Source: Paracoccaceae bacterium (GTDB lineage: Bacteria; Pseudomonadota; Alphaproteobacteria; Rhodobacterales; Rhodobacteraceae). From it: a stretch of 64,000 nt of DNA. Both the position numbers and the translations under genes were made by a program. The notes under the pieces are model-generated. The model did no database searches and had not been told where the DNA came from. It saw only the letters and a list, made by a program, of their open reading frames with translations. The stretch spans positions 782,214 through 846,213 of the forward strand of contig OZ241737.1 of the NCBI GenBank assembly GCA_965200885.1, given 5' to 3'. Positions 11,195 to 62,351 of the stretch are shown here, in pieces. Positions within the stretch are counted from its first letter, which is position 1, and the number at the start of each line of letters is the position of its first letter.

Positions 11195-11314
11195 TTCCAA
11201 CTCCAAAAAAAGTAAATTCGAAAGCCAAATAAAGTTCACTTGGCAGAGAATCCCTATTACCACAGCCACAATACCCCTCAAAGGAGAATCTTTGATTTAC
11301 GACAGAAGAATTCC

Positions 11315-13581: not shown

Positions 13582-13793
13582 GGCGATTATATACTTGTTT
13601 CGCCATTTTCCAAAAAAGCATCTAAATCCAAGGTCAAATGTACACATTGCTTCAAGGAATTTTTCATTTTCAAGATACCCCCAGAATGATGCCAAGGTCA
13701 TAATGAAGCACCCTTCAAAGAAGAATTGAAGGGTGCTGTGAAAGAAGAAAATCGTTTGAAATTGATGTTTGGGGAAACAAGTATATAATCGCC
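13582..13793. mobile_element. TIR element A (212 bp, non-autonomous)
   Basis: Perfect 20-bp terminal inverted repeat: GGCGATTATATACTTGTTTC at 13582-13601 and its reverse complement at 13774-13793. Internal hairpin GCACCCTTCAA..TTGAAGGGTGC. No flanking duplication. Confidence 0.6.
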
Positions 13794-23545: not shown

Positions 23546-23736
23546 GGGGATTATATACTTGAGTGACCAAACTGCAAAAATGTCAATTCCTGGAGGTGTT
23601 CAGATACCTCGAAGCGATTCCATTGCACTCTACGGGCTTCTCCGTGAGAGGTATTTTCAGGAATTTGCCAAAAATCAATAAATTTGCACCAAATCGGCTA
23701 GCCTGTGGTAAATGGGTATTCAAATATATAATTCCC
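23546..23736. mobile_element. TIR element C (191 bp)
   Basis: Ends GGGGATTATATACTTGA and TCAAATATATAATTCCC (15 of 17). AAATTT is directly adjacent on both sides. The interior is homologous to element F. Confidence 0.65.
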
Positions 23737-30767: not shown

Positions 30768-31153
30768 CGGATTACCTCTCTGTAATGCCAAAAAGTTGTA
30801 GTTGTTTGGTATTTTACCCACAGACTTCTTTATAAAAATGCCTGATGTCAAGGATCAACTTTTCCATTACATCACATATTTGAAATGTTCATGAATCTGA
30901 TTCTATAAGACAGGGTAATTCGAAGAACAGCAACTGATGCTGATGTGGTCAAGTTTAGGGAATTATATACTTTTATTACGCAAGCAGAATTTCCTACACT
31001 ACCAAGTCAAGGAACTACCGTATCCACACATCTTTTTTCGGGTGGTTGCATGCCTGTTCCCCCATTTCCTGAAAAACATCCATATCCACGGCACCACCAC
31101 TTGGCAGGCACACAGGGTGAGGTGGCCCTGCACGGCCTTTTCCCTTTTTTTCC

Positions 31154-31917: not shown

Positions 31918-32296
31918 CGGGCCGGTTCCGGGCCATCCGGATGGAACGCGACCTGGCAGGAAATGTGTGAATCTGATAGGGTCCAGGAGTGCTGGTGTGG
32001 GTCAAGAGATCAAAGAGGAGTAAGTCCATCTTACGCTTGGGGACCATCGGAACCTCAGGCTATACCAATATTCCCGACAGCGCCCAACGCTGAGATGCGG
32101 CGGAGGTTGATAGACCAAAATGATCAATATGAAATAAAAGAGTCGACTTCGGTCGCCCTTTCTCTTATCAACACGGGAATATATAATTCCCCAAGTTTAG
32201 ATTACAGGATTAAAGTTATAAAAAAGAACCAAAATTATGCCATTGCATGCTTTATTTTCGAATCAAAACAAGTATATCTTGATGAGGAGGAAATAG

Positions 32297-43372: not shown

Positions 43373-43777
43373 ATTTCATTTCCCGAATGGACCAGTAGTG
43401 AACCGACCATATTGCTAGTCCTTTAATGATTTAAAAATACAAACCTGTCCTGAATTATCCAACAGATTTTTTGCATCATGCCGGGATATTTCAAATTTCT
43501 GCGTTACCATTCAATTGATTTAGGGTTTAATCTTCGAAACCCCATCCCCTTTGACTTTTTTGAACTGTTTATTTATCCAGGTTGAATAATTGTTGAGGAA
43601 CCGAAAAATTCATTCCCCTTTTGTTTAGTCACCGATTTAACTGTTGCAAATAGATTGTTGCTGATTAAATTTCTAAATTATTTCGGTCATTTACGGAATT
43701 ACATTTGGCTTGCCTGTTTAATTTCTTCGCATGAAGAAGTAACCTCTGTGTAATCTGATATTCAAAAAAGCAAATTT

Positions 43778-44253: not shown

Positions 44254-45225
44254 ATGAAAATTTTAGAAAGCGGTAAACACATAATGGCAGGCGGAAAAAA
44301 CAAGATTTCCATCCGCAATATCATGGCCTATCTTTTTGCAACGGTAGCAACCATTCTATGGGTACTTTTTTTCTATGAGATAAGCCGAGGCGGTGGATTA
44401 GGCGAAACTTTCCAGAATAACAGGGGTGCAATCCCATTGGTTGTCGGACTGATTCCAATACTGTTTTTCTGGTTGGTGGCAGGATTGTATTTGATGGCAG
44501 TTCAAAACAGCGAACGTTACAACGAGTTGAAAAAGAAGATTGGGAAGCTGAAGGAAGAGATTGATCATATTTCCTTCGGTGAAAGCGAACGGTTCATGAA
44601 CATCTTGACAGACAGTCCGTCGGCACACGGGGAGAGTCCGGAAATCCATGAGGAATCGGAATACGATGATATGGCAGGAGAAACAATTGATACCCCATTC
44701 AGCCATCCCATGTCCAGTGATGAAGTCAGGGGAGAGACAAACATGCTTGATGAATGGGGCCTTGACACGCAAACACTGATCAGGGCCTTCAATATGCCCA
44801 ATGATGAGAATGATTCAGAAGGTTATGATGCAATTGAGCTAGTAATCAAGATTGAATCCCTGGAAAAACTGCTGCGGAATTCCCATGAACTCCTCTTTAC
44901 CCTGGCTGATTATGATTTGATAATGGATGATCTGGAAATTGATATGGGCCTGATCTCAACCTGGAGGCGATTTGCCGCAGATAGTGCCGTAGGTTCGGTT
45001 TCTTCCCTTGGTGGAACCGGAACGTTTGTCGAAATTGCCAAGGTCTCCGGCATTTTGGCCGAAAACAGCAATTTTGAAAGCCTTGCCGACACCTTCAACA
45101 AACAGATGGAAGAGTTTATTTCCAAGGTCATACCACAACTCAGTGATGATGAAATCAGGGAACTGGCCGAAACCAGGACTTTTCTGGCCTTTTTATTGCT
45201 TGGCCAGGTTTTCAATACCGGTTGA
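44254..45225 (+). CDS. hypothetical membrane protein
   Basis: Two N-terminal TM segments followed by an acidic soluble region. No recognised motif. Confidence 0.5.
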   Translation: MKILESGKHIMAGGKNKISIRNIMAYLFATVATILWVLFFYEISRGGGLGETFQNNRGAIPLVVGLIPILFFWLVAGLYLMAVQNSERYNELKKKIGKLKEEIDHISFGESERFMNILTDSPSAHGESPEIHEESEYDDMAGETIDTPFSHPMSSDEVRGETNMLDEWGLDTQTLIRAFNMPNDENDSEGYDAIELVIKIESLEKLLRNSHELLFTLADYDLIMDDLEIDMGLISTWRRFAADSAVGSVSSLGGTGTFVEIAKVSGILAENSNFESLADTFNKQMEEFISKVIPQLSDDEIRELAETRTFLAFLLLGQVFNTG

Positions 45226-45230
45226 TTGCG

Positions 45231-45328
45231 GTTTTCAAACTATATCCAAAAACTGCTGTAGGGATAATATTTGACCAGGGTCACCCCTATCAACCGATAG
45301 GGTATCCTCTCCCAATTCGACCAGACCT
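45231..45328. repeat. diverged copy of the moeA 3' end (left direct repeat, attL-like)
   Basis: Aligns base for base with 52258-52354. I count about nine differences by eye, including one 1-nt indel. The minus strand reads GLVELGEDTLSVDRG.. versus GLVELEEDTLSVDRG.. in intact MoeA. The stop codon and 9 nt of downstream sequence are also conserved. Confidence 0.85.
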
Positions 45329-45356
45329 ATTACAAGGACTGCTTCACGTGAGACAA

Positions 45357-46316
45357 GTTACGGTTGCCATACCGATCTAGATTTGCTACTCTAATAACGT
45401 CCTTATCGGCCGGATTTCCCCCGTTACGGTTGCCATACCGATCTAGATTTGCTACTCTTAGGTTAAATGTGTAATCCAATCCAAGACCGTTACGGTTGCC
45501 ATACCGATCTAGATTTGCTACTCTAAGAACCAGCAACAATCCTCGCTCGTCGACGTTACGGTTGCCATACCGATCTAGATTTGCTACTCTCGAAGGGATT
45601 ATCGGTGCTTACGTCTGGATGTTACGGTTGCCATACCGATCTAGATTTGCTACTCTGGTCGATCTCATCGGAAGCATCCGCGATCCGTTACGGTTGCCAT
45701 ACCGATCTAGATTTGCTACTCTGAGCGAGAGCGGAACAGGGGGCTGGACTAAGTTACGGTTGCCATACCGATCTAGATTTGCTACTCTCATGCCTGGAAA
45801 TAATGTTCGGCTGCGACTGTTACGGTTGCCATACCGATCTAGATTTGCTACTCTAGCTCAAACCGGCTCATTTAAGATATGAATGTTACGGTTGCCATAC
45901 CGATCTAGATTTGCTACTCTCGCATCCAGCATCAACATTCCGATACTGATGTTACGGTTGCCATACCGATCTAGATTTGCTACTCTCACCGATCACATCG
46001 GGAGGCATGACATATAGTTACGGTTGCCATACCGATCTAGATTTGCTACTCTGTTGACACAAAAAAATATCGTCTGTCTGTCGTTACGGTTGCCATACCG
46101 ATCTAGATTTGCTACTCTTTAGTGTGAGCATCTGCCATAATGGCAGCAGTTACGGTTGCCATACCGATCTAGATTTGCTACTCTGCAACTCGCCATTAAT
46201 CCAAATAGGATTATGTTACGGTTGCCATACCGATCTAGATTTGCTACTCTCATTAGCAGGAGCATGAGGAGGAGCGCGCAGTTACGGTTGCCATACCGAT
46301 CTAGATTTGCTACTCT
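45357..46316 (+). CRISPR. CRISPR array: 15 identical 36-bp repeats and 14 spacers of 30 bp
   Basis: Repeat GTTACGGTTGCCATACCGATCTAGATTTGCTACTCT starts every 66 nt from 45357 to 46281. The + orientation is inferred from the tracrRNA anti-repeat and terminator. Confidence 0.97.
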
Positions 46317-46326
46317 AGAAAGTTGT

Positions 46327-46361
46327 CAAACCCTTTTGAACAAGTGGTTCAAAAGGGTTTG
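46327..46361. terminator. 15-bp perfect hairpin between the array and the cas2 3' end (bidirectional terminator candidate)
   Basis: CAAACCCTTTTGAAC-aagtg-GTTCAAAAGGGTTTG followed by GTTTAT on the + strand. Confidence 0.55.
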
Positions 46362-46386
46362 GTTTATAAAATATTGAAGTGGTAGA

Positions 46387-46713
46387 TCAAAATAATGTAA
46401 GTAATTTTGGTTTTTTTTCAGTTTTTTTGATCTTTTTTCCAGAATAGTTTCTAGTCAATTCAAATTGTTTGTCTGTGAAAAACATTATTGAAACATCTCC
46501 TTCATGAGGTACTTTTTTGCCAATCCTTTCTGCTAATGACTCTGCACTTGGGCGGTTCGGGCACACTCTCAAGTAGACTGAAAATTGTTTCATAATACAT
46601 CCTTCACTTAAAAGGTAATTTCGAAAACCCGTGGCATATCTTCTTTCAACCTTAGTGCCTACAGGTAAATCAAAAACAACAAGAACCCACATAATCGAAA
46701 ATGAGGAGTGCAA
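46387..46713 (-). CDS. cas2: CRISPR-associated endoribonuclease Cas2
   Basis: 108 aa with the N-terminal VLVVFDLPV strand carrying the conserved Asp. It sits between cas1 and the array. Confidence 0.85.
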   Translation of the reverse strand: MHSSFSIMWVLVVFDLPVGTKVERRYATGFRNYLLSEGCIMKQFSVYLRVCPNRPSAESLAERIGKKVPHEGDVSIMFFTDKQFELTRNYSGKKIKKTEKKPKLLTLF

Positions 46714-46743
46714 ATGAAAAAATCCATTTAATTTAAATCATGA

Positions 46744-47643
46744 TTAATTTGCGAACTCTATCTTTAGGGGAAGTTCCAGCTTTTTTTCGGAATTTTCAAA
46801 AACGGAAATTAGGCTATTTACAACTAATACCATAGCCCTAAAAAGATCTGTTTCACCAGATGCTAAGATCAATGTCCTTTGCATTAGCCCTGCAAGAATT
46901 TCTTTTGATTCTTTTGAAATATCTTCACTCCAAGAATTCCTATTCTGCCAAACTACACGATCAACAAGGGGCCGGAATGGTTCCAAAAGATCATCGACTA
47001 AACAAAAATTATTACGAGAATTAATGTGGCCTACTCCAAGAGAGGGAGATAACCCTGCTGAAATTACAGCCCTAGCCAATGCTGAACGAAGTATTGTATA
47101 CCCATAATTCAAATGTGCATTAATACCCGGAATGTGACGGTCACGGTGAAAATTTAACCCAAATAACTTTTTCCAATAATATCGAGCTGCCTGCGCCTCA
47201 ACATTGTTAGGGTCACCAGAGCGAACTTTTTTTTCAAGATTAAGCAAAAACTTGCTAGCAGGTAAGTTGATTCCATTTAAAGTTCTAGATTGTTCCCTAA
47301 TTTTTGCCTTTACTAGCTCTTTCCAAATCCTTTTTTTTATAGGTTTTGCTACTGATGCCTGGGCTTGAATCCTTCCCGATTGAAGGTAATGATTTGCAGT
47401 GGGCACCAATAATGCTACTGGTAAATGCTTTTCATTACATACTACCAATGGTATATTACATTCTGCCAATTTAAATAATAAGCCGTGTGAATAGGTCCCA
47501 TAATAGGAATGAGTAATTATGGCTTGGATATCTCTTAAAGGTATACGACCTAATTCTTGCTTATTGTCCAAAACAACCAAACTTTTCCGTTCAGTATGTA
47601 AGTATCTTCCTGGCTCCGTAATATCAACAATACGCCAAGTCAT
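46744..47643 (-). CDS. cas1: CRISPR-associated endonuclease Cas1 (type II)
   Basis: 299 aa. Signature GHINSRNNFCLVDDLLEPFRPLVD (His...Asp/Glu metal site). Confidence 0.9.
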   Translation of the reverse strand: MTWRIVDITEPGRYLHTERKSLVVLDNKQELGRIPLRDIQAIITHSYYGTYSHGLLFKLAECNIPLVVCNEKHLPVALLVPTANHYLQSGRIQAQASVAKPIKKRIWKELVKAKIREQSRTLNGINLPASKFLLNLEKKVRSGDPNNVEAQAARYYWKKLFGLNFHRDRHIPGINAHLNYGYTILRSALARAVISAGLSPSLGVGHINSRNNFCLVDDLLEPFRPLVDRVVWQNRNSWSEDISKESKEILAGLMQRTLILASGETDLFRAMVLVVNSLISVFENSEKKLELPLKIEFAN

Positions 47644-47656
47644 ACATTTTTCTTTT

Positions 47657-50600
47657 TCATTCGTTTAACATTGGAAAAAAGTAAGTGGGTTCCCCAAGAT
47701 GATTAGTAATAATTCGCTGGGCCCTCTTTTCCTTAAAAAATTTTAGACGCCTTTCATATAATGAACGCTTTCCAGCATCTTTTGCATCAGTGCACTTCAC
47801 AACACCCATTTTGCCATCAGAAATTCTCACTACTATCATTCTAACCCGATAATTTAAATTATCAGGATCATCCAATAGCAGAATATCGTCTTTATGTGCA
47901 GACCATAGAAGGGCGTTACCTGCCTTGTCTGATTCTGGTACAAAAGTTTCATCATTTGCTTCAAACATTGTAATAATTTGCCACTTGATTTTTCCCTTAT
48001 TATTTTTATAAAAATCCATACGGTGGTTTCTACCACTAAGGTAACCTCCATTGAATTTATTTCCTTGCTTAATAACATTTACTAATTTTTGTTCCTTAAA
48101 ATCCCAGTAATAGCAAGGGAGAGCCTTCTTTTTCATGAGATCAATTGCTTTCTTGTAAACTAATGTTTCTGTAATTGCTCTTACTTTCTTCCCTTGATTT
48201 TTGTTTTGAATTGCTTCTGCCCTTAATTCTAGCCGTGCTTTTTCACAAAATCCTTCCACTTTATTTTGGATCATGTTGAGGTTATTTGTAAAATCAGCAA
48301 TTGATGGGTTGTCTCCATATCCCTTAATCAATGCACCACTGATTTTTTTCTTTTTCAAGTCAGTTAAGGATTTTATATCGCCAAGTTTCACTTTTGTCCG
48401 AGTTAAATACTTCCCTTTCTCATGGGGCCCAGAAACTATCCCCCTTAAAGTATCCTCGTGCAATTGCCCACTTGCTGAATTATCCGGCTTCCTTGATAGA
48501 AGTACATTTTGCGTTACCTTCTCAACATGGGACCAAAATTCTCTTTCACCACCAAATGGAGGTTGAATTTTGTCAACTATACCCAAGATCCTTTTTTCTT
48601 CACAATGACGTGCAGCGGTTTGAATCTTTTGTATAGTGGATCTGGTGGTACACCCGACAACCAACGCATCAATAAAATGATGTCTGTGATCATCTCTTTG
48701 TTTGATGCTTGATTCACCCCCAAGTACCTTATTCAGGCCCCATTTCTTTCGCAACAACGAAGTTACTTTACTGCTGACAGCAATTACATTTTCTGGTTTT
48801 CCATAAAGGCAAGTTAGGTATTGTCTCGTAATTTTGGCGATATACGAATTATCAATAGAAAATCTTTCTCGCCAATAGTCTGGATTATTTTCAAACCTTT
48901 CTAGGGCATCACTTTTAAATCTATTTTTCTTTCCTGCAGGTAAGTCATTAACCCTTCTAATAATTGCATCCCAATCAAAATTTGGATCAGAAGAAAATGC
49001 GTCATAAGGGGTCCGATTGTTTTTAAAAGCATTAGCACTTTTCTTACATAAAACCATATTTGCTTTAGAATCATCATAGGTTTTACTGCGAGGTAAAATA
49101 TGATCGATTTCAACTTCACCACTAAACAACTGAATAAGGCTGATGTTATCACCTGTATAAACACATTTGCATTTTTGTTGTTCCCATAATTCATATTTCA
49201 ATTCGTTGGGTCGCGTTTGTTCAAGTTCATTTTCCTTAAGCTTCCGCCTAATTTGCTCTCTTTTTTCTCTGTTACTCGCAATCTTTTGCTCTATCAATGC
49301 TTTTGTTTTTTCACTTTTTCCTAGATCCCTTGCTAATTCAACATAAATTTTCTCTGGCAATCCATATTTATCGATTAAACAATTTACTGCTTTTCTTATT
49401 TGATTAAGGGCAACATGGACAACCGGATTTGGTGCCCTACCGTATTTCTTCTCAAGAAAATTAGTGTTAGGGGGTTTGTTTGATGGGTTTTCAGAAAAAA
49501 TCCAAATTGGCTCAATAGCGTACCCTTTTAAAACTTCACCGTAATAGGGTAATTTCCTGAATATTTCTCCAATTGGTGTTTGAGCATGGACCAACCCAGC
49601 CAAATCCTCAGCTGCACGGGAGGAAAGGGTGGGATGTTTCTTGAGTTCCACAAGTATTTTCCTGGTGGCGGTTTTCCCTAGATTTCCATAACCTTTGGGA
49701 AAATCTGTCTGGATAAGCCGCTTTGTTAATTGATCAGATAAATTTATTACCGTCTTGATCTTATCAACAGCTTCTTCCTTGTCAAAATGGGTTGACAATA
49801 TCTCCAGAACAAAATCCTTGTTTTCTGCATTTAATTCAGCCCACTCTTCACCCAATTCATAATTCGAAAATGGATACTTCGCTATCTCAGTTCTAGCTTT
49901 GGAATCTTCTAGGTTAACCTTGCAATTTTTTTTAATCCCAATTATTGTTTTTATGTCAGTTTTATTTAGGGACTCTCCCCTCATCAAGGATTCCACAAGT
50001 TCGTCCCTTTGACCAATTGTCAATTCCGGCAAGGGTGTCCCTTGATGAGAAAACCTTAAATTGTTTACCTCCTCATAAATCCTCTTTTCCTGAAAAAGTC
50101 TAGAGGATTTTGGCAGACGTTTTTCATTCGTAACATACGAACAATTACCAGGTGGGGGTGTCGAGACTTTTCGTTGGAAAAACAATTCTTCTTCAAGGGA
50201 TTCTCGAAATGAATCGTTCAACTTCTCCTGATGAAATTCTTTTTGTTTTTGCCAAATGATATCGAATTCTTTCCTTAACAAATCTCTTGAGGGATAAAAA
50301 TCATAACTTCCTTTTCCAATCACTTCTTGGTTGATTCTGACCTTTTTCCTTCTCTTTTCCCTATACCAAAGAAACTGGCCATAAGTTTTAAATCCCATTT
50401 CGTTGATTTTTACTTCAAGTTTCTTAATACCTTCTTTTGTTAATAAAGTATCTTTTTCATCATTATCCCTCCCGTCAAATGCACTGCTACCTCGATGTTT
50501 TGCCATATGGAGAATTATTCTTTGTAATTCTTCCAAATCTATTTTCTCGTTAACTGCTTTTGCCCTTAGTTTTAAAGGTGATTTATCCAGTAAATACTTC

Positions 50601-50866
50601 GGAATATCATTATGAGGGAATCCGATTCCATTTTTAAGGAAGATTTGCGCCAAGCGTCGTAATCTCATTTGTTTTCTATCTATCATTCGCCTTTGAGAAC
50701 GAGCTAATCGACGAGTTTCTCCTCCAACTGGTGCCGACCAGGTTCTCACAAATCCTTCTTTAACACCAATAACATTTTCTTCCTTGTCAATTTCAATCAC
50801 AGCTAACCCAAGGGAAGCAACCCCAACATCAATTCCAAGATTGTATTTAAAAGGAGTTGTATTCAT
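47657..50866 (-). CDS. cas9: Cas9, type II-C size class (1069 aa)
   Basis: RuvC-I NLGIDVGVASLG, Arg-rich bridge helix RRLARSQRRMIDRKQMRLRRL, HNH EIDHILPRS..NMVLC..N, RuvC-III DDHRHHFIDALV. There is no csn2 or cas4, so subtype II-C. Confidence 0.95.
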   Translation of the reverse strand: MNTTPFKYNLGIDVGVASLGLAVIEIDKEENVIGVKEGFVRTWSAPVGGETRRLARSQRRMIDRKQMRLRRLAQIFLKNGIGFPHNDIPKYLLDKSPLKLRAKAVNEKIDLEELQRIILHMAKHRGSSAFDGRDNDEKDTLLTKEGIKKLEVKINEMGFKTYGQFLWYREKRRKKVRINQEVIGKGSYDFYPSRDLLRKEFDIIWQKQKEFHQEKLNDSFRESLEEELFFQRKVSTPPPGNCSYVTNEKRLPKSSRLFQEKRIYEEVNNLRFSHQGTPLPELTIGQRDELVESLMRGESLNKTDIKTIIGIKKNCKVNLEDSKARTEIAKYPFSNYELGEEWAELNAENKDFVLEILSTHFDKEEAVDKIKTVINLSDQLTKRLIQTDFPKGYGNLGKTATRKILVELKKHPTLSSRAAEDLAGLVHAQTPIGEIFRKLPYYGEVLKGYAIEPIWIFSENPSNKPPNTNFLEKKYGRAPNPVVHVALNQIRKAVNCLIDKYGLPEKIYVELARDLGKSEKTKALIEQKIASNREKREQIRRKLKENELEQTRPNELKYELWEQQKCKCVYTGDNISLIQLFSGEVEIDHILPRSKTYDDSKANMVLCKKSANAFKNNRTPYDAFSSDPNFDWDAIIRRVNDLPAGKKNRFKSDALERFENNPDYWRERFSIDNSYIAKITRQYLTCLYGKPENVIAVSSKVTSLLRKKWGLNKVLGGESSIKQRDDHRHHFIDALVVGCTTRSTIQKIQTAARHCEEKRILGIVDKIQPPFGGEREFWSHVEKVTQNVLLSRKPDNSASGQLHEDTLRGIVSGPHEKGKYLTRTKVKLGDIKSLTDLKKKKISGALIKGYGDNPSIADFTNNLNMIQNKVEGFCEKARLELRAEAIQNKNQGKKVRAITETLVYKKAIDLMKKKALPCYYWDFKEQKLVNVIKQGNKFNGGYLSGRNHRMDFYKNNKGKIKWQIITMFEANDETFVPESDKAGNALLWSAHKDDILLLDDPDNLNYRVRMIVVRISDGKMGVVKCTDAKDAGKRSLYERRLKFFKEKRAQRIITNHLGEPTYFFPMLNE

Positions 50867-50923
50867 TAATTTTTACCTTTTTCCATTGCTTTAATTTTTG
50901 AATTGAGACCAGAGAAATTCTTT

Positions 50924-51661
50924 AAGGATTATATACTTGTTTGTCCATTGCCTGATTTCAGTTCTTTTTCCTGTTTTCCAAAAACCGCCGGCCCTTCCCC
51001 GGCGGTTGCCTTGTCATTGCCTCGCCCACATTTTCAGGTGAGTCCTTGATGATGGGAAACTCCTCGCGGCCTTCGGGCCGGTCTGCCCCGGGTTTCCTTG
51101 TTTCGGGGGATTGCGTCTTAACCGTCGGACGGTCATTGCGGGTTGGCATGCTCTTCTCCGGGTATGGATAACGGCAATGCTTCAATTTTCCTTGCAACAT
51201 CATCAAGTTTCAATTCACCGGCCATACCCCCTCGACCTTCGGGGTTGCGGGATGCTGTCGCAATTCTTCGACAGGATTGCTGTTCCGAATCCGAACGATC
51301 CCCACTCAAGGTGAATCCGTCATTTCCACATTGAGCTGTTGGCAGGAAGAATGTCCACCATCGCCAAATCGCTCTTTCCCATTCGTCCGCTCTTGTCAAA
51401 ATGATTTTCCCACCCCATGTTTCCAGTCATCGGGAATACTCGTTCTCCTGGATGAAAAATGTGTTTGTGGTATTCCCGACCCTTCCCCCAAAAGCCTGAT
51501 TCCGAACGTTTCACCCCTTCGGGACGGAAAACGAACAAAATCGCAAGGGAATCATGTCCTTGACGGGATTTCCGGCCATCTTGTGGAAAAACCTCCCATG
51601 CACGTTCCTCCGGGTGTCAAGAGGCTAGTTGCAAAAATGGGGAAACAAGTATGTAATCTCC
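50924..51661. mobile_element. TIR element E (738 bp) with GC-rich non-coding or decayed cargo
   Basis: Ends AAGGATTATATACTTGTTTG and GAAACAAGTATGTAATCTCC. Flanking 8-mers AATTCTTT (50916-50923) and AATTCTTA (51662-51669) match at 7 of 8 positions. It begins 57 bp upstream of the cas9 ATG. Confidence 0.6.
50980..51007 (-). terminator. intrinsic terminator inside element E (minus strand)
   Basis: CCGCCGG-cccttcc-CCGGCGG followed by TTTTT on the minus strand. Confidence 0.5.
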
Positions 51662-51676
51662 AATTCTTAATATTAT

Positions 51677-51857
51677 GGGAATTATATACTTGATTGAATT
51701 TCCCATTTACCGAAAATACAACAGGTGTTCAGACACCGCGGGGGAATACAATTGCACTCCAGGGGAATGTGTGTGGTAGGTTTTTTCACAAAATCGCCGG
51801 AAAACCAGCGATGCCTCCACAAAAAAATAGGGAAATTCAATCAAGTATATAATTCCC
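51677..51857. mobile_element. TIR element F (181 bp)
   Basis: Perfect 28-bp inverted repeat GGGAATTATATACTTGATTGAATTTCCC. Perfect 8-bp duplication AATATTAT at 51669-51676 and 51858-51865. Confidence 0.8.
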
Positions 51858-51887
51858 AATATTATCTAAAAAAATACAATCTAATTC

Positions 51888-51916
51888 TTGACTATTTATC
51901 TACCAATCCTTATTTC
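51888..51916 (+). promoter_or_regulatory. candidate tracrRNA promoter
   Basis: TTGACT (51888-51893), a 17-nt spacer, then TATTTC (51911-51916). This places a start about 5-7 nt downstream, at the beginning of the anti-repeat. Confidence 0.45.
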
Positions 51917-51920
51917 TTGA

Positions 51921-52011
51921 GTGTAGCAAATCCAGATCGGTATGGTAAGAAAATCGTAATAAGTTATTTATTAGCGAAAAATGAAGGTCGCATAGCGGCC
52001 TTCTTTTTTTT
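51921..52011 (+). ncRNA. tracrRNA
   Basis: Anti-repeat GAGTGTAGCAAATCCAGATCGGTATGG (51919-51945) is complementary to repeat nt 11-36 with two mismatches. CGTAAT (51955-51960) can pair with repeat nt 1-6. This is followed by AAG and a strong terminator GAAGGTCGC-ata-GCGGCCTTC plus a T-run (51983-52011). Confidence 0.8.
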
Positions 52012-52257
52012 GGGGGTAGTATCCGATTGATTCCAAGGATGAAGATGAAATGCAACCGAGTAATTCACTATGCTTAATTTCCTTAGAACATTGGCGTGCA
52101 TTGTAATGTATGAACGACATCTGGGACTGATTTGCCAATGATCGTGGAGTAATTTCTTTACAGCATATTGAAATACTTTGGATAGTACAAAGACTTGATG
52201 ACTTTTTGAGGAAATTTACTTGCCCGCCATAATTGGTGAAGTGCTTTTTCAATGGAA

Positions 52258-52354
52258 GTTTTAAAACTATACCCAGAAACTGCTGTAGGGATAATATTTG
52301 ATCAGACTCCCCCTATCAACCGATAGGGTATCTTCTTCCAATTCGACCAGACCT
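52258..52354. repeat. moeA 3' end plus 9 nt downstream (right direct repeat, attR-like)
   Basis: Partner of 45231-45328. It forms the functional 3' end of the intact moeA gene. Confidence 0.85.
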
Positions 52355-53520
52355 GCCGACCAGGACAGGCTGGTGGTCAAACCCGATCCTTCCGATGGAA
52401 AGATCTCAGCCAAACCTTCATCATTCATTCTGGCACGAAGGTATTCCCTGCGACCGGCTTTTTTGTGTTTCTCAAATGCTGCCGGAACCATGAAACCCAC
52501 TGGTGGTCTCCATAATTCACCCGACAATATACACATGGCCGGATGAGCAAAAACCAGGGAACAGACAAAGGCTGCAATGGGATTTCCAGGAAGTCCGAAA
52601 ATATAGGCATCCTGCCATCTTGAAAGGGCCAGTGGCCGACCTGGCTTCACAGCGATTCGCCAGAAGTTTAGCTGGCCTTCCCTCGACAGTAAATCGGATA
52701 CAAAATCTTCCATGCCCGATGAAGCACCACCGGAAGTCAGGATAATATCGGAACAAGACGCTCCCCGATTCAGACTGTTGCGCACATCATCCCTGTTATC
52801 CCCAACCATACCGAGATCAACAGGAACAAACCCCATCTTCTGTATCAGGGACAGAAGCATGGGTCTATTGGCATCAAAAACAGTTGCATTATCCATCATC
52901 ATGCCACTTTCGCACAATTCATTACCTGTAGACAAAACGCCCACACGGAGTTTGGCGTAGACATTTATTTTATCCACTCCTGATGAAACCAGGCTGGCCA
53001 GATCATTGGTTCTGATTTTATGACCTTTGTCAAACAACTGATCTCCAACCTTGATATCTTCACCGGCCAACCGGGTGTTGGCTCCCTTTTTTGGCCTTGA
53101 TTTAAAATGAAGCCGGTTGGAATCGATTTGAGAGTATTCCTGCAGATGTACTGTGTCCACACCCTCAGGCAAAGGAGCGCCAGTCAGTATCTTTATGGCT
53201 TTACCAAATGGCAGTGGCTTATCCAGTATCGAACCGGGCGCTGCATAACCACTTGCAAGTTCCAACTCATCATGTCTGGTTAAAGAGTCAAAGGCAAAGG
53301 CAAAGCCATCCACAGCTGAATTGGTCAACGGCGGATTGGCCCTCAGGGCGGTAACCTGTTTGGCGAGGATCCTGCCAACGGCCTTGTCCAAGGTAATTAC
53401 CTCAGATTTGTCCAGTGGGTTAAAACTGGATAAAATCCTACTTATGGCATCACCGACCGGGAGCCAATTCACCCCGGGGGGTAAGGCAAAGCAATCTGGA
53501 TCAGAAGTTTCAGTATTCAT
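52267..53520 (-). CDS. moeA: molybdopterin molybdotransferase
   Basis: MoeA pattern with VLSTGNEL and ILTSGGASSG motifs. 417 aa. Confidence 0.85.
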   Translation of the reverse strand: MNTETSDPDCFALPPGVNWLPVGDAISRILSSFNPLDKSEVITLDKAVGRILAKQVTALRANPPLTNSAVDGFAFAFDSLTRHDELELASGYAAPGSILDKPLPFGKAIKILTGAPLPEGVDTVHLQEYSQIDSNRLHFKSRPKKGANTRLAGEDIKVGDQLFDKGHKIRTNDLASLVSSGVDKINVYAKLRVGVLSTGNELCESGMMMDNATVFDANRPMLLSLIQKMGFVPVDLGMVGDNRDDVRNSLNRGASCSDIILTSGGASSGMEDFVSDLLSREGQLNFWRIAVKPGRPLALSRWQDAYIFGLPGNPIAAFVCSLVFAHPAMCILSGELWRPPVGFMVPAAFEKHKKAGRREYLRARMNDEGLAEIFPSEGSGLTTSLSWSAGLVELEEDTLSVDRGSLIKYYPYSSFWV

Positions 53521-56217: not shown

Positions 56218-56933
56218 CAGGTCACAACCGCTTCAAGGGTATAATTTTTGACAAGGATGGAACCCTCTTTGATTTTCAAAGTACCTGGTCTCCCATGATG
56301 ACGACCCTTTTGAATGAGCTATGTGGAGGTGACAGGGAATGTTCCAGACAAAAAGGGCAATTATTGGGTTTTGACCTTGACAATGGATTATACCTGCCTG
56401 AAAGCCCATTTATTGCCGGAACCCCAGAACAGTTTGTCGAGCAATTGCTTGTGCTATTCAAAGATTGGTCCGAGATGGAATTAATCCGTTTGGTGAATAA
56501 AATTACCAAAGATACGGAACAGGTTGAGGTGGTGTCCCTCGAACCTTTCCTGACAAAATTCCAAAAGGCCGGTTATGCTCTTGGGGTAGCCACCAATGAC
56601 AGTAAGGAGGATGCCATAAAACAACTCGACGAAAAGGGCATTCTTAAATATTTCGATTTTCTTGCCGGTTTCGACAGCGGTTATGGATCCAAACCTGATC
56701 CGGACATGCTTCTGGCCTTTTGTCAACAAACACGGATCCAACCTGCGGAAACCGTCATGGTCGGAGATAGCAAAAGCGATCTTCTAGCAGGAAAAAGGGC
56801 TGGCATGTTTACCGTGGCAGTCTTGTCTGGTGTTGCTAAATCCGAAGACCTCGCACAGCATGCAAATTTAATTATCCGGGATGTAGGTGGACTTTGGGAT
56901 GGTTTAAACCGAAAATTTCAACTTAATCCATGA
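56214..56933 (+). CDS. HAD-superfamily hydrolase (phosphoglycolate phosphatase-like)
   Basis: Motif I IIFDKDGTL, motif II VATND, motif III/IV KPDPDML..VGDSKSD. Confidence 0.8.
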   Translation: MTGHNRFKGIIFDKDGTLFDFQSTWSPMMTTLLNELCGGDRECSRQKGQLLGFDLDNGLYLPESPFIAGTPEQFVEQLLVLFKDWSEMELIRLVNKITKDTEQVEVVSLEPFLTKFQKAGYALGVATNDSKEDAIKQLDEKGILKYFDFLAGFDSGYGSKPDPDMLLAFCQQTRIQPAETVMVGDSKSDLLAGKRAGMFTVAVLSGVAKSEDLAQHANLIIRDVGGLWDGLNRKFQLNP

Positions 56934-57079
56934 TTGGAAAAAGCAACATTTGTGCAGCAAGTGAAAAGATAAAGTGCAATTTGAGCATTGTCCTCTGCAC
57001 TTTTGATCAATGCATTTTCACCCCCGGAATGATTTTCTTCAACCAGCGATCCAATAATTCTTCAAGGAAAAATCACATT

Positions 57080-57694
57080 CTAGCGAATGTCCCCAATGTT
57101 TTCCATGTGATGTACAAGTTCCTTGATTCCCTTGCCAAACTTCAATTGACCAAAAACGTATGGTCGTCCTGCTCTCATCTTTTCGGCATCCCGCTTCATG
57201 ACATCAAGATCAACTCCTACATGGGGAGCCAGATCGGTCTTGTTGATAATCAGAATATCAGAACGGGTTATGGCCGGACCTCCCTTGCGCGGTATTTCCT
57301 CACCAGCCGCAACATCAATGACATATATCGTCATGTCGGCAAGTTCGGGGGAAAATGTTGCAGAAAGATTGTCACCGCCAGATTCAATCAATACCAGTTC
57401 AAGATCGGAATGCACTTCGCAAAGCTCTTCAATCGCAGCAATATTTATTGAGGCATCTTCACGAATTGCAGTGTGTGGGCAACCCCCAGTCTCAACGCCC
57501 TTAATGCGATTTGAAGAGAGGGCCTGTAAACGCAAAAGGGCATCTGCATCCTCCCTCGTGTAAATGTCATTGGTTACAACAGCCATGGAAATATCCTTGC
57601 TGAAAACCTTGCACAAGGCAGCAACGAGTGTGGTTTTACCGGAACCAACGGGTCCTCCAATCCCGACACGAAGTGGGCCATGGGGACTTCTCAT
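57080..57694 (-). CDS. ureG: urease accessory GTPase UreG
   Basis: [11 protein letters not shown]-loop, ESGGDNL, INKTDL. Confidence 0.9.
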
Positions 57695-58383
57695 GTTCGA
57701 AATATCCTGGTGTATTGGTTTTCATGTTGCATTGAAGCTATTTCAGTCAAGAAGGCAACCGAGGCAAGTTTGGAAAGATCACCATCGCGTGTTTCATTTG
57801 CAACCTCTGGGCATTTCAGTGTCAAACGCCTGAGAATTGCCTGTCCCTCCAACTGACCTACAGCCAGTAGTCGTTGACCGGCAGTAACAAGATTGGACAT
57901 GAAGGCTTGAAGATAAAGTTGTTGCGTCGATTTGAGAGGTAAACCTTCCTGTACTGCAGCAGCGCCAAGTGCGACCGGATAAGTCAACTTATCTGCTCTA
58001 ATATCCCAGATAGACAAGACCTTGCCAAAAGCCCGCCCCAAAGCCTCAGACTCTAACCTTCTTTCGGCAGTAACCGCAAAGGCCCGGGCGGTTTGGTTTA
58101 TTTCGTAAAGACATTGAGAGGTCTTGGCCAGATATGAAGCTGCCAGTAGAAGCGAATCAGCCCTTCCAGTGCCATGGAGCAATACATCTTCCAACCAATC
58201 TTCCAGTTCTGGCCCATCCTTGACCCATCCCTGTCCAACAGCGCTTTCCAGGCCGTGACTGTATGCAAATGATCCCACGGGAAAAGCCGGTGAAAGCCAT
58301 TGTGTGAGGGTAAGGAACTGGATATCAGTGAGCATGTGTCCGGGTGTTTCCATAGGCACCACCTTCAGGTGTAAATGGTTCAT
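57691..58383 (-). CDS. ureF: urease accessory protein UreF
   Basis: [17 protein letters not shown] motif. The real start is probably an internal Met, because the ORF overlaps the end of ureE. Confidence 0.8.
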
Positions 58384-58756
58384 TCACACTTGTGACAATG
58401 GCGCCGAGTTTTAGCAGCATGGTTTTGATAACATGGTTGTGCTGGATCAGAAGACGCCCAGACTCAATTTGACAAGGCGTGTGTCGGTTGCCTATGTGCC
58501 AGGCAAGACGGACCAAATTTCCCTTGACTTCCAACAAATCTTCATTGGCCGGAACAACACCAACCAGACGACCATCTTCCAATACAAAAGCATCATGCCG
58601 ATTCAATGAAGTCGTTTTGGCCAAATCCACCCGAAACCTCAAGCCATTTTCGGAGGTGAGGACTTTTCGGCGAAGAAACCGTTCCTCATAATCCATGATG
58701 ATAATGTCATCGGTCTTTTTTGCATGTTTGATGTTCCGGCTGATAACAAGCGACAT
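58325..58756 (-). CDS. ureE: urease accessory metallochaperone UreE
   Basis: LAWHIGNRHTP motif. Its position in the ure operon fits. Confidence 0.8.
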   Translation of the reverse strand: MSLVISRNIKHAKKTDDIIIMDYEERFLRRKVLTSENGLRFRVDLAKTTSLNRHDAFVLEDGRLVGVVPANEDLLEVKGNLVRLAWHIGNRHTPCQIESGRLLIQHNHVIKTMLLKLGAIVTSVNEPFTPEGGAYGNTRTHAH

Positions 58757-58763
58757 TTTATCA

Positions 58764-60473
58764 TCAAAACAGGAAATATCTTTGCGCCAAGGGCAGCGTC
58801 TCTGCAGGCAGGCAGGTCAAGAGCTCACCATTGGCCCTTACCTCATAGGTTTCCGGGTCCACTTCCATATCAGGAGTCGCACTGTTCAGTGGCAAGTCCT
58901 TTTTGCCAATTCCACGTGTGTTTTTCACGGCTAGGGTGGTTTTGGACAATCCAAGTCGAGATCCGATTCCCATGTCTTGTGCTGCTTCACTGACAAATGT
59001 CACCGCAGATGACTCCACACTTTTGCCATAGGCGCCAAACATCGGGCGTGAATAAACAGGTTGCGGTGTAGGAATCGAAGCGTTGGGATCACCCATTTGG
59101 GCCATGGCGATTGTTCCGCCGATAAGCACCAAATCTGGTTTGACACCAAAGAATGCCGGATCCCAAAGAACAAGATCAGCTCGCTTGCCGTCTGCTACTG
59201 ATCCAATTTCATGTGCGATTCCGTGTGCAATGGCGGGATTTATTGTATATTTCGCGATATAGCGGCGAACACGAAAATTGTCGTTATTCCCTTTTTCTCC
59301 AGATAACCGTCCCCTTTGCTTCTTCATTTTGTCAGCTGTCTGCCATGTACGTATAATCACCTCTCCCACCCGACCCATGGCCTGGCTGTCGGAAGCGATG
59401 ATCGAAAAGGCCCCCATGTCGTGAAGTATGTCCTCGGCAGCTATGGTCTCGCGTCTAATGCGACTTTCAGCGAAGGCCACATCTTCAGGAATGGTTTTAT
59501 CGAGGTGATGGCAAACCAGAAGCATATCCAGATGCTCTTCCAGAGTGTTGATCGTGAATGGTCTTGTTGGATTTGTTGATGAAGGAAGAACGTGATCCTC
59601 GCCACAAATCTTGATTATATCTGGTGCATGCCCACCCCCTGCACCTTCGGTATGAAAGGCATGGATTGTTCGACCCTTCATGGCCTTGACGGTGTTTTCA
59701 ACAAAACCACTTTCATTGAGTGTATCAGTATGAATCATGACCTGCACATCCATCGCATCGGCCACATTCAGGCAACAGTCTATGGTGCCGGGTGTTGTAC
59801 CCCAATCCTCATGCAATTTCAAAGCGCAGGCACCTCCATTGACCTGCTCTTCCAGGGCAGCAGGCAGGGAGGCATTTCCTTTGCCGGCAAAAGCGAGATT
59901 CATGGGAAAGGCATCTGCTGCCTGAAGCATGCGACCAATGTGCCAGGAACCTGGTGTACAGGTAGTGGCAAGAGTGCCTTGGGCTGGACCAGTGCCTCCT
60001 CCAAGCATGGTGGTCAATCCTGAATGCAAGGCATCCTCGATTTGTTGTGGACAAATAAAATGAATGTGACTGTCAAAGCCACCAGCTGTCAGTATCTTGC
60101 CTTCACCCGCAATAGCTTCGGTACCCGGTCCGATAATTATATCAACACCTGATTGTGTATCGGGATTTCCAGCCTTGCCGATTTTGGCTATTCGGCCATC
60201 CCTTATGCCCACATCTGCCTTGTAAATTCCGGTATAATCAACGATCAATGCATTTGTGATCACCGTATCCATTGATCCTTCAGCACGGGTACTCTGAGAT
60301 TGTCCCATTCCATCGCGAATCACCTTGCCACCACCGAACTTGACCTCATCACCATAAATCGTGTGATCTCTTTCAACTTCAATTATCAAATCGGTATCAG
60401 CGAGTCTGACCCTGTCCCCGGTTGTAGGACCAAACATGGCTGCATAATCATGGCGTGAGATTTTTGTCGGCAT
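58764..60473 (-). CDS. ureC: urease subunit alpha
   Basis: 569 aa with [30 protein letters not shown] and [13 protein letters not shown]. Confidence 0.95.
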
Positions 60474-60778
60474 CAGAGATTTCCCATTATCTTTTGGTTG
60501 AACCCAAACACCCTTCGCTTGCCACCCAGGGGAATGAGTTGTACTTCTCGGCGCTGACCAGGCTCGAAGCGTACTGCAGTACCTGCCGCGATATCAAGCC
60601 GCATGCCCCGAGCCAAATCACGATCAAATTCCAAGGCCGGGTTTGCCTCACCAAAATGATAATGTGAACCAACCTGTATAGGCCGGTCGCCTGTATTGGC
60701 CACCATTAGCCTGGTTTCTTTCGCATTCTCATTGAGGGTAATTTCATCAGGACCAACAAATATCTCTCCAGGAATCAT
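60473..60778 (-). CDS. ureB: urease subunit beta
   Basis: MIPGEI.. N-terminus and [12 protein letters not shown]. Confidence 0.9.
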
Positions 60779-60847
60779 GCTCTTACCTTTGCGGGTTTGG
60801 AAAACATATCAAAAAACATCGTAGAATATCAGGCAAGGGGTAACTCC

Positions 60848-61150
60848 TCAACGAATGGGATTGTGAACTGTTACAAGTTTTGTTCCATCAGGAAAAGTTG
60901 CTTCCACTTGCACATCATGGATCATCTCGGCCACGCCATGCATGCACTGATCCCTGGCAATGACATTCGCCCCGGTCTCCATCAGGTCGGCGACCGTTCG
61001 TCCATCGCGTGCTCCTTCAACCACCGCATCAGTGATCAGGGCAACAGCCTCGGGATGATTCAGTTTCACACCGCGTTTCAACCTTTTCCTGGCAACTTCG
61101 GCTGCCATGGCTATGAGAAGCTTTTCTTTTTCTCGTGGAGTCAGTTTCAT
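60848..61150 (-). CDS. ureA: urease subunit gamma
   Basis: Start at [12 protein letters not shown]. 100 aa. Confidence 0.9.
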
Positions 61151-61151
61151 C

Positions 61152-62021
61152 TCAAATAATCCAGCACTTGGGTATGACACCCTTATTCAGATGTTTTAGT
61201 ATCGGTATCAGATTGGAGCGCAATTCATCACTGTCTTTGGCCAGCAGGCGCATGTTCAGTACATCATCATGGATCAGACTGACTCCTGCATGGCGCGGCA
61301 ACATTCGATGGAGGAGGTCCCTTTTGGCATCCGCATCATCTGCCACATAAACCAAGGAAGCCATCGTGTAGGCACCAACAGCTATACCAAGTCGATTCAA
61401 CGTTGCCTGCACATCCGATTGCAATCCAATGCGCTCCAGGAAAATCGGGTTTCCATCTCGCCTTATTTCAATACAGTCCAGGAACGAGGCACAATGCAGT
61501 GCCTCTCCCATTTCGAATCGCCCGAATACCAAAGGCTCTGCCATCAACAATTTGGCATCTTCTGACAAATCAATTGTCAATGACCGGTTCAGGCAACAAC
61601 CATCAAAGAGAATGGTCTCTTGTGGCAGCCAGTTTATTCTTGCTCCCTTTTCCACTTCCAGATGGGCATGAACCTGTCCCGTCTCTCCCGGCAGGGCACG
61701 ATAGATACGCTCGGCAGCCTGGGTAGTGAGAGTCAATGTTGTCCTTGGCTCCGCTCGTACCGAAAGTGAGAAATGATCGCCCCCCGTGACACCACCTGCG
61801 CAATTCAACAGGACAGCTTCCAATGAAGCACCATCACGACGCGGAAAAAGGCACTTTAACGAACCTGATTGTCGTAATCTCCTTATTGCGGATTGCCCAT
61901 CTCGTGCTTTGGTTTCAAGTACAACTTCGCCCTTGGCCCGTTCCAATATTGATTCGAGGCGAATCATGTCAATCAAATCATGCCTGGTCTCAAAATCACA
62001 GGTATTCACATTGTACTCCAT
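61152..62021 (-). CDS. ureD: urease accessory protein UreD/UreH
   Basis: First gene of the ure operon. 289 aa with a UreD-like pattern (..GGVTGGD..). Confidence 0.75.
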
Positions 62022-62351
62022 TGAGGGGAAATTCGCCTAGAGTTACCATAATAATCATTGTGCCATGTGTTGTTGTTCAAATTTTTTTGAATAATTTTTC
62101 TCACAATCTCTAGGCACATTGTAACAATTTTTTCCATCATTTGAATTTTCTCAACAATTTTACCTGCCCGACAGTTTTTCAAATTAAAACCATTGCTTTT
62201 CCTAATATTCTTTTTGTCCGATGCAAACTGCCGTATCCATCAATAGGGAAACCAATTGAAATTTAATTGAATTTGGTGTTTTTCTTTGCAAGGATTTAAA
62301 TTTTAATTTTCAGAAAACATTATTTATCGAGAGCATTTCAGGGAGGTTTTC

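Follow-up and report, generated by a model that had tools for sequence, protein, structure and literature searches.

The window studied here is a stretch of 64,000 nt (positions 782,214 to 846,213 of contig OZ241737.1, assembly GCA_965200885.1) of an uncultured, sponge-associated Paracoccaceae bacterium, and all positions below are counted from its first letter unless another contig is named. It carries a type II-C CRISPR (clustered regularly interspaced short palindromic repeat) locus with cas9, cas1 and cas2, set between a gene for a 323-aa protein and moeA, and a copy of the moeA 3' end recurs on the far side of the locus. A first-pass annotation, made from the letters of the window, had noticed this duplication and likened it to the attL/attR sites of an integrative island. 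The feature is real, and its interpretation is in need of revision. Probably the cassette was inserted once, long ago, and the duplication is a later scar, confined to the population of the window, of an abortive allelic replacement by the empty allele of a sister clade. The features on which this argument turns are the following:

44254-45225, plus strand: gene for a 323-aa protein, function unassigned, the left core flank; an open reading frame (ORF) whose orthologues adjoin moeA in all relatives.
45231-45328, minus strand: left copy, non-functional, what remains of a moeA 3' end of the sister-clade type (9 nt downstream, the stop, and the final 85 nt with the extra G), from repeat alignment and haplotype comparison.
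52258-52354, minus strand: right copy, the functional native moeA 3' end plus 9 nt downstream, with a divergence that fits the rest of the window moeA.
52267-53520, minus strand: moeA (molybdopterin molybdenumtransferase), the right core flank, with the Pfam domains MoeA_N, MoCF and MoeA_C.

The two copies form a direct repeat of 97-98 nt in the same orientation, located precisely where the first-pass annotation had placed it, and they align as the pairs 45231-45286/52258-52313 and 45284-45328/52310-52354 with an offset of one base. They are separated by 10 substitutions and a 1-nt insertion (an extra G at 45278 of the left copy, which breaks the moeA frame there), giving 11 differences; about nine had been counted by eye, one of them a frameshifting indel, and the indel stands while the count does not. 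Apart from the CRISPR array this pair is the sole long direct repeat in the 8-kb region, so a chance match is ruled out. The right copy takes in the final 85 nt of moeA, the TAG stop at 52267-52269 and 9 nt downstream of it, moeA being the last gene of a minus-strand fdhD-mobA-mobB-moeA run. The left copy begins 5 nt past the stop (45223-45225) of the convergent 323-aa gene, which is the position held by the moeA end in relatives with an empty site, just as had been expected for the ancestral moeA end.

For comparison, about 45 related loci were gathered through a MoeA scan, a Cas9 search, a search with the 323-aa protein and context look-ups, all of them from metagenome-assembled genomes (MAGs) and metagenomes of sponge-associated Rhodobacteraceae/Paracoccaceae. 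The window and L018-L023 make up population W, whose flanks are 96-99.7% identical among themselves; its sister group, clade C, is 94-96% identical within and about 90% identical to W in the same flanks; L032, with about 60% protein identity, serves as the outgroup. In the empty state, the 323-aa gene and moeA are directly convergent with 14 nt between them. This arrangement, which the annotation had proposed to look for, was found in about 28 contigs (L002, L003, L027-L031 and L033-L052) and in the outgroup L032. The same cassette occupies the same site in all W assemblies and in clade-C L001, L024/L025 and L053, and L026 retains an array remnant of two repeats followed by an insertion sequence (IS). 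Over about 40 contigs the cargo of the site is thus this CRISPR-Cas locus, the IS-disrupted remnant of L026, or nothing. Most clade-C genomes are empty, and in a moeA tree with the site states mapped onto it L001 falls within a group of empty genomes, so that the site is polymorphic for presence or absence even between very close relatives. The view that the cassette was inserted into an ancestrally empty site is supported.

Contigs of W and clade C co-occur in one sample series (e.g., ROBB21-1), and in principle a chimeric assembly, with reads of clade-C empty alleles joined onto the W array, could have mimicked the left copy. However, the left junction is identical in the independent assemblies L018-L021 (NCBI, ENA and Logan), and is therefore not an assembly artefact; the remnant itself is identical across all assemblies of the population. 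Specifically, the same joint and the same frameshifting G occur in the NCBI MAG contig JAPOTQ010000007, in ENA scaffolds, in a k141 contig and in a Logan contig; no sequence is shared across 45328/45329 that could mislead an assembler, and markers private to W, reaching to 45180, lie on the same contigs. A chimeric origin is hardly credible.

Haplotype comparison separates the two copies clearly. Relative to clade C the window takes the place of an outgroup, and private changes are spread over its whole moeA at 8-10 per 100 nt. The right copy shows 12-17 differences per 97 nt from the clade-C ends, like the rest of the window moeA, and judged by this divergence it is the native copy. The left copy differs from clade-C moeA ends at only 4-9 positions, with L001 the closest, and has the clade-C majority state at 10/10 of the substitution sites; at seven of these ten all clade-C haplotypes (11/11) agree with it, and at four of the ten the right copy shares the outgroup state. 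Its distance from the clade-C majority (five differences) falls among those of ordinary clade-C tips (3-9). Moreover, W-private changes in the left flank end at 45180 and none is found between 45181 and 45328. A neutral 97-nt remnant resident since the lineages split should have collected 10.7-19.4 substitutions on the W branch, and no W-specific change was observed (probability 2e-5 to 4e-9); hence the remnant is young, unlike the cassette. On these haplotype grounds the left copy stems from a clade-C moeA end and was imported recently, having been coding-constrained until shortly before its import.

Two other assignments were tried and set aside. A foreign right copy was rejected, as private changes run at 8-10 per 100 nt along the whole of the window moeA. 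A left copy held by selection as a frozen ancestor, in the role of a CRISPR leader or of a terminator for the 323-aa gene, was rejected because of its clade-C-tip-like divergence, and it is also contradicted by the free variation of the same sequence among clade-C genes. A search for a terminator at the left copy found none that is convincing.

The original insertion can be read from the occupied relatives. W, L001, L024/25 and L053 share one right junction, TTTTT(T/C)AAT(T/C/G)GAA/G, in which the T-run of the terminator of the trans-activating CRISPR RNA (tracrRNA) is followed by TTAATTGAA (TCAATGGAA in W), a G and the moeA stop region; a single junction in all occupied lineages implies a single origin. 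L053, a complete occupied clade-C locus on a 711-kb contig, has a single moeA-end copy, and the L026 remnant likewise has no second one. In both, a degenerate terminal repeat (TTAACGG...) starts 11 nt past the stop of the 323-aa gene. The left remnant had also been sought in L001 and L024, of which the former contig stops in cas9 and the latter has an IS-capped array, and it was L053 that decided the matter. Since orthologous occupied clade-C loci lack the moeA-end copy, and the 97-nt duplication is documented in W only, the duplication is not a marker of the insertion.

A better candidate for such a marker is a short one. The clade-C cassette sits within the 14-bp intergenic spacer, and an imperfect 9-bp direct repeat (left TTGATTGCA, right TTAATTGAA, a 7/9 match) exactly abuts the insertion point on its two sides; a boundary repeat with this match is estimated to arise by chance in about 0.4% of cases. 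It may be the target duplication of the original insertion, and in a weaker variant of the mobile-circle proposal treated below it would record a transposition-like arrival of a bare CRISPR-Cas unit. The window carries the corresponding pair:

45222-45230, no strand assigned: left 9-mer TTGATTGCG, including the TGA stop of the 323-aa gene; native, the putative left copy of the target duplication.
52249-52257, no strand assigned: right 9-mer TCAATGGAA, ortholog of the clade-C TTAATTGAA; the putative decayed right copy of the target duplication.

Concerning the age of the cassette, synonymous divergence (dS) between W and clade C is 0.39-0.40 for cas9, 0.25 for cas1 and 0.22 for cas2, against 0.23-0.35 for the flanking genes. 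Since cas and flank values are similar, the cassette is at least as old as the split of W and clade C, and it has descended together with its flanks. For L001 against L024, both of clade C, dS is 0.22 for cas9 against 0.08-0.15 for the flanks. A transfer of the whole cassette from clade C to W was rejected as the main model by these dS values.

These observations bear directly on the attL/attR reading, in which an integrative island would have targeted the moeA 3' end, supplied a replacement gene end and been mobilised in trans. Bracketing direct repeats, empty sites and cas genes that are AT-rich against their flanks all suit such an island. Nevertheless, the orthologous occupied loci (L053 and L026) lack the repeats, the copies are about 10% different with no identical core across lineages, and the cassette is as old as the lineage split, the repeat being younger than the DNA it brackets. 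The check proposed at the time, to ask which copy is native, was informative: the functional right copy is native (12-17 differences from clade C) and the displaced left copy foreign (4-9), a polarity opposite to that of an island supplying a replacement gene end. In addition, no integrase or transposase ORF lies between 45231 and 52354 according to the ORF list and a family search, as had been noted from the start. The cassette is known from one site only. In a protein search, Cas9 homologues of at least 85% identity share one context, the next relatives are at most 60% identical, and no Cas9 above 60% identity was found outside the W and clade-C lineages. No ortholog of the window Cas9 was met on plasmids (at most 31% identity), viral contigs searched with the 28 nt that precede the first repeat, with one spacer and with Cas9 gave no match, and neither did scans of Joint Genome Institute (JGI) metagenomes with the protein and with a 25-nt DNA pattern. 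An integrative island is very improbable on this evidence, and the attL/attR reading, which three of the features that define such islands contradict, is not supported. The other option raised in the first-pass annotation, a swap through flanking homology, has fared better, as turnover by recombination in the flanks fits the data.

The left end of the array distinguishes W further. W arrays lack the degenerate terminal repeat of clade C, and their first, perfect repeat is preceded by a stretch two nucleotides short of a spacer:

45329-45356, plus strand: 28-nt stretch between the remnant and the first repeat, close to the 30-nt spacer length, with the terminal repeat missing.

Because the spacers are 30 nt long and the degenerate terminal repeat of clade C is absent here, this stretch is probably a 30-nt spacer shortened by 2 nt at an illegitimate joint. 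It had also been considered as a degenerate repeat overlapping the remnant, and no similarity was seen by eye.

This end is also relevant to an explanation in which the duplication is primary, i.e., made at the first insertion, later deleted in clade C, and its old, decayed left copy in W overwritten not long ago by gene conversion with clade-C DNA. Such a history would provide a homologous target for incoming clade-C DNA, it agrees with a remnant that is clade-C-like and young, and recombination patches are common at the locus. On the other hand, L053 and L026 share a left structure that looks like a primary boundary and not like a deletion, the missing degenerate terminal repeat points to truncation in W, and after neutral decay over a dS of about 0.3 a copy of 97 nt would serve homologous recombination poorly. 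We find this history quite improbable.

The explanation we favour, an abortive replacement by a clade-C empty allele, would run as follows. The cassette would have been inserted once into the 14-bp spacer between the 323-aa gene and moeA, in an ancestor shared by W and clade C, and afterwards would have been co-inherited with its flanks as a presence/absence polymorphism, its turnover depending on the recombination of the cell itself and not on an element-encoded recombinase. A W cell would then have taken up a clade-C fragment in which the end of the 323-aa gene runs into the moeA 3' end; the donor was presumably an empty allele. This fragment would have engaged in homologous pairing where the 323-aa gene ends, in a 3' stretch that is identical in the two lineages from 45181 on. 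Had another crossover followed in moeA, at a distance of 7 kb, the cassette would have been removed (chromosome curing); this presumably did not occur, and the far end of the donor, 88 nt into moeA, would instead have been joined illegitimately inside a spacer, deleting the old array end and leaving the 28-nt spacer stump. An array with CRISPR RNA (crRNA) starts inside its repeats would stay functional despite such a loss of its distal end. Indeed, the remnant follows on from the 323-aa gene at its 3' end and in the native register, which provides the homologous anchor on one side; on the other side, at 45328/45329, homology ends abruptly against the 28-nt stump and the terminal repeat is missing. 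The joint is best described as putative homology-facilitated illegitimate recombination.

Several points weigh against this explanation. The exact donor haplotype (GCGGTTTTCAAACTATATCCAAAAACTG...) is unsampled, its nearest relative L001 being three substitutions and the indel away, and no remnant-free genome of the W lineage was found among the related loci to show the state before the event. The joint 45328/45329 is without clear microhomology. The donor-marker anchor is short, as W-private sites extend to 45180 and at most about 50 nt are left unmarked. The transfer route may be transformation, a gene transfer agent or another one, and the entire data set consists of metagenome assemblies. 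Finally, markers that are fully partitioned, with clade-C states throughout the left copy and W states throughout the right one, are equally expected from one reciprocal crossover with a circle.

The last point leads to a Campbell-type alternative, in which a circle carrying a clade-C-type donor cassette and a 97-nt moeA end integrates into an empty W chromosome by one crossover. Such a circle would contain part of a spacer, the array, cas2, cas1, cas9, the tracrRNA gene, the right junction and, from the donor moeA end, the first 97 nt; its crossover point would be the GTTTT just downstream of the moeA stop, and integration would duplicate the 97 nt. The junction predicted for it has right-junction DNA (...CAATGGAAGTTTT) followed by the 97 nt and these by ATTAAAAGG with the array behind it; written out, the part beyond the 97 nt is GACCAGACCT joined to ATTAAAAGGACTG. 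As this model predicts for the markers, native DNA precedes the left copy, which has donor states from 45236 on, and cassette-type junction DNA precedes the right copy, which has recipient states from 52263 on; both boundaries would stem from one event, and the 28-nt partial spacer would suit an illegitimate circularisation point. Against this, the W cas genes stand at dS 0.22-0.40 from all sampled clade-C cassettes, the same as the genomes, so that the donor must pair a clade-C-like moeA (3% from L001) with a W-like cassette. The right junction and tracrRNA region of W also seem to have diverged together with the host, the crossover would be confined to a 5-nt window at the edge of about 107 nt of homology, and no integrase, no evidence of a circle and no second genomic context was found for the cassette. 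Integration of a circle at this locus is unlikely; the broader proposal, that the cassette moves as an integrase-independent circle with a captured piece of moeA and re-integrates by single Campbell-type crossovers of which the window repeat is the footprint, we hold to be improbable.

Replacement of short tracts between lineages, which the abortive-replacement explanation calls for, has other traces at the locus, read here from markers and SNP patches by inspection. Between the window and L018/L021, single-nucleotide polymorphisms (SNPs) are clustered at 9-15 per 200 nt between identical stretches, and which W allele is closer to clade C varies by patch; this alternation implies short-patch recombination between lineages at the locus. 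Within W, cas2 (46387-46713) reaches a dS of 0.18 against 0-0.02 in the flanks, and cas9 shows 0.028 non-synonymous (dN) and 0.047 synonymous divergence, with patches at about 47717, 48117-48517, 49117 and 50114, the flanks and cas1 being nearly identical. The patches in cas2 and cas9 indicate, by their clustering, imports from divergent, unsampled cassette alleles. The clade-C tract at 45181-45328 lies within a W genome as well. The arrays have been replaced altogether: the window and L018 (45357-46316 against L018 7702-8660) share 0/14 spacers while their flanks are 99.5% identical, and the spacers differ even at the presumed old end of the array. As to the remaining W arrays, that of L019 differs from that of L018 solely by a tandem duplication of one spacer-repeat unit, and that of L021 (Logan) consists of one repeat, a collapse which probably comes from assembly.

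The cassette itself comprises the following parts:

45357-46316, plus strand: CRISPR array of 15 identical 36-nt repeats (GTTACGGTTGCCATACCGATCTAGATTTGCTACTCT) with 14 spacers of 30 nt, from repeat detection.
46387-46713, minus strand: cas2 (Pfam CRISPR_Cas2, E 2e-14).
46744-47643, minus strand: cas1 (Pfam Cas_Cas1, E 3.6e-33).
47657-50866, minus strand: cas9, 1069 aa, type II-C-like (Pfam HNH_4, RuvC_III and Cas9_a; TIGR01865, 554 bits).
50927-51658, no strand assigned: GC-rich non-autonomous element bounded by terminal inverted repeats (TIRs) and related to ISKra4/ISLre2-like IS ends.
51676-51858, no strand assigned: miniature inverted-repeat transposable element (MITE) of 183 bp with perfect 29-nt TIRs, of the same TIR family as the preceding element.
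51915-52011, plus strand: tracrRNA gene, with an anti-repeat (51918-51948), a small hairpin and a G+C-rich terminator hairpin with a T-run.
52010-52243, no strand assigned: 234-bp segment from the T-run of the tracrRNA terminator to the right junction, in W only.

The three cas genes are adjacent minus-strand ORFs, and no other ORF between the flanks matches a family: cas9, cas1 and cas2 are present, with neither csn2 nor cas4. Cas9 is compact and has RuvC and HNH domains, and its closest solved structures are Cas9 chains of about 1082 aa (e.g., 6jdq and 6kc8; best E 9e-66), the type II-C Cas9 of Neisseria meningitidis. The anti-repeat of 29-31 nt is 90% complementary to all 15 repeats, and the tracrRNA ends in a terminator hairpin with a T-run; its region is conserved in four lineages (the window, L001, L024 and L053). 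The array repeat is identical in clade C (L024 and L053). By these features the locus is a chromosomal type II-C CRISPR-Cas9 immunity locus, an assignment that rests on domains, gene set and structure matches. The orientation of the anti-repeat implies that crRNA is read on the plus strand, towards cas2. A simple promoter scan for crRNA promoters matched nothing on the plus strand. In sequence, the 3' end of the repeat, TGCTACTCT, resembles the extended -10 element (TGCTACAAT) of N. meningitidis repeats, of which it may be a counterpart. In characterised type II-C systems, crRNAs start from promoters within each repeat (PMC5965381). At 46322-46365, in the gap from the last repeat to cas2, lies a perfect hairpin (AAACCCTTTTGAAC...GTTCAAAAGGGTTT) that is conserved in clade C and is probably a bidirectional terminator; an Rfam scan of the region gave a single sub-threshold chance match at this hairpin, to a plastid 3' untranslated region family.

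The composition of the cassette had been described as AT-rich throughout, with only the array, the three cas genes, two TIR elements and the tracrRNA gene inside it. The cas genes are indeed AT-rich (34-39% GC) and make a compositional break with flanks of 44-49% GC, although the array (44-48%) and the element at 50927-51658 (53%) do not share this bias. The inventory of parts likewise holds except for its exclusiveness, as the 234-bp segment and the 28-nt stretch have to be added. The 234-bp segment is present in L018 and L019 and absent from L001, L024 and L053; it contains no repeat and has no family match and no match elsewhere in the window.

Insertion sequences have shaped the locus repeatedly. 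The element at 50927-51658, located between cas9 and the tracrRNA gene, occurs in the window lineage only and is absent from L001, L024 and L053. Its relation to ISKra4/ISLre2-like elements (154.6 bits) lies under the NCBIfam cut-off, it matches IS-end DNA beside the L026 and L024 arrays, and it is bracketed by a duplication of about 9 bp (AATTCTTTA/AATTCTTAA). The 183-bp MITE was seen in the window only and is missing from every related locus fetched, including L018 and L019. Together these two IS-derived insertions put the tracrRNA gene about 0.9 kb from cas9 in the window lineage. Both non-autonomous elements share the TIR family ATTATATACTTG..., and L018 and L019 apparently lack the MITE by a TIR-to-TIR deletion. 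These two loci also hold an extra 1.2 kb inside the first element (L018 13355-14582, in window orientation), for which window 31015-31058 and 31922-31981 gave weak matches; the TIR elements themselves have weak, partial counterparts at window 13585-13609 and 23594-23659. In L026, an ISKra4/ISLre2-like transposase gene (10954-12711, below the NCBIfam cut-off) directly follows the two-repeat remnant, and moeA is not within 10 kb of it. In L024, the end of the same IS family caps the array (positions 1-149 in window orientation). The distal end of the array thus appears to be a hotspot of IS insertion.

Additional polymorphism was recorded in the neighbourhood. In profile searches the 323-aa protein fell into neither a Pfam nor an NCBIfam family, and an exact look-up of the protein as encoded in the window returned no record; its homologues were found in the sponge-associated group only, and the gene evolves fast, with a dN of about 0.09-0.10 between lineages against 0.02-0.06 for its neighbours. 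Between the gene for electron transfer flavoprotein-ubiquinone oxidoreductase (ETF-QO) and greA, L027, L033-L036, L043-L047 and L053 carry two additional genes (compare window 43373-43777). One encodes a periplasmic binding protein of about 400 aa, the other a product of about 590-600 aa without a family; W lacks both. On the other side, a urease-like block at window 56930-62021 consists of seven ORFs (ureG/cobW-like, ureF, ureE, ureC, ureB, ureA and ureD) that match the annotation of L043-L049 in size and order, and window 56902-62248 has no counterpart in L001, L024 or L053. The block is found in the window and one clade-C subgroup and not in others, which makes it another presence/absence polymorphism, at 4.5 kb from the CRISPR locus.

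The CRISPR locus is an ordinary representative of type II-C. As in the systems of the Neisseria meningitidis and Campylobacter jejuni type, it has the same set of cas9, cas1 and cas2, a Cas9 of about 1070 aa, repeats of 36 nt, a tracrRNA gene upstream of cas9 on the opposite strand and an array read towards the cas operon; it differs in a Cas9 that is distant from characterised enzymes (its best non-orthologous match is 60% identical) and in a tracrRNA gene pushed about 0.9 kb off cas9. In addition, the symbiont population shows complete replacement of spacers, patchy recombination of cas genes between lineages and an IS-derived separation of tracrRNA gene and cas9. A comparison with integrase-bearing islands at gene 3' ends is instructive: the window has the same gene-end repeat bracketing AT-rich DNA and the same empty sites, yet it is without an integrase, its repeat is missing in orthologous loci, the copy that functions is the native one, and the cargo is far older than the repeat. 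A gene-end repeat that brackets AT-rich accessory DNA is therefore insufficient to call an integrative island.

A general parallel is with accessory and defence hotspots free of mobile genetic elements, which have the same fixed core flanks and no integrase (PMC5635113; for core defence hotspots, PMC10250203). Presence and absence among very close relatives and recombination patches in and beside the cassette are also held in common, although the present site has one kind of cargo over about 40 contigs and known hotspots are typically varied. Accessory hotspots without mobile elements turn over by recombination of the flanking core genes, and chromosome curing has been described for them (PMC5635113). 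If the abortive-curing explanation is true, the left copy would be a natural footprint of a process that is usually inferred only statistically; empty alleles would invade occupied defence loci by recombination, and failed attempts would sometimes remodel the array. Homology-facilitated illegitimate recombination is known from naturally transformable bacteria. Its primary references are de Vries and Wackernagel and Prudhomme et al., both of 2002. The concept of illegitimate recombination and curing has also been used elsewhere (PMC2884548; PMC5361080; PMC5635113). In the literature searched, no described case was found of an incidental direct repeat left around a CRISPR-Cas locus by such recombination. 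In contrast to homology-facilitated illegitimate recombination as described, the joint of the window is without clear microhomology and is known here from sequence alone. It nevertheless presents an imported tract that continues into homologous flank DNA on one side, the same abrupt joint on the other and probably an adjacent loss of recipient DNA, and the donor tract is exactly what an empty allele carries beside its anchor.

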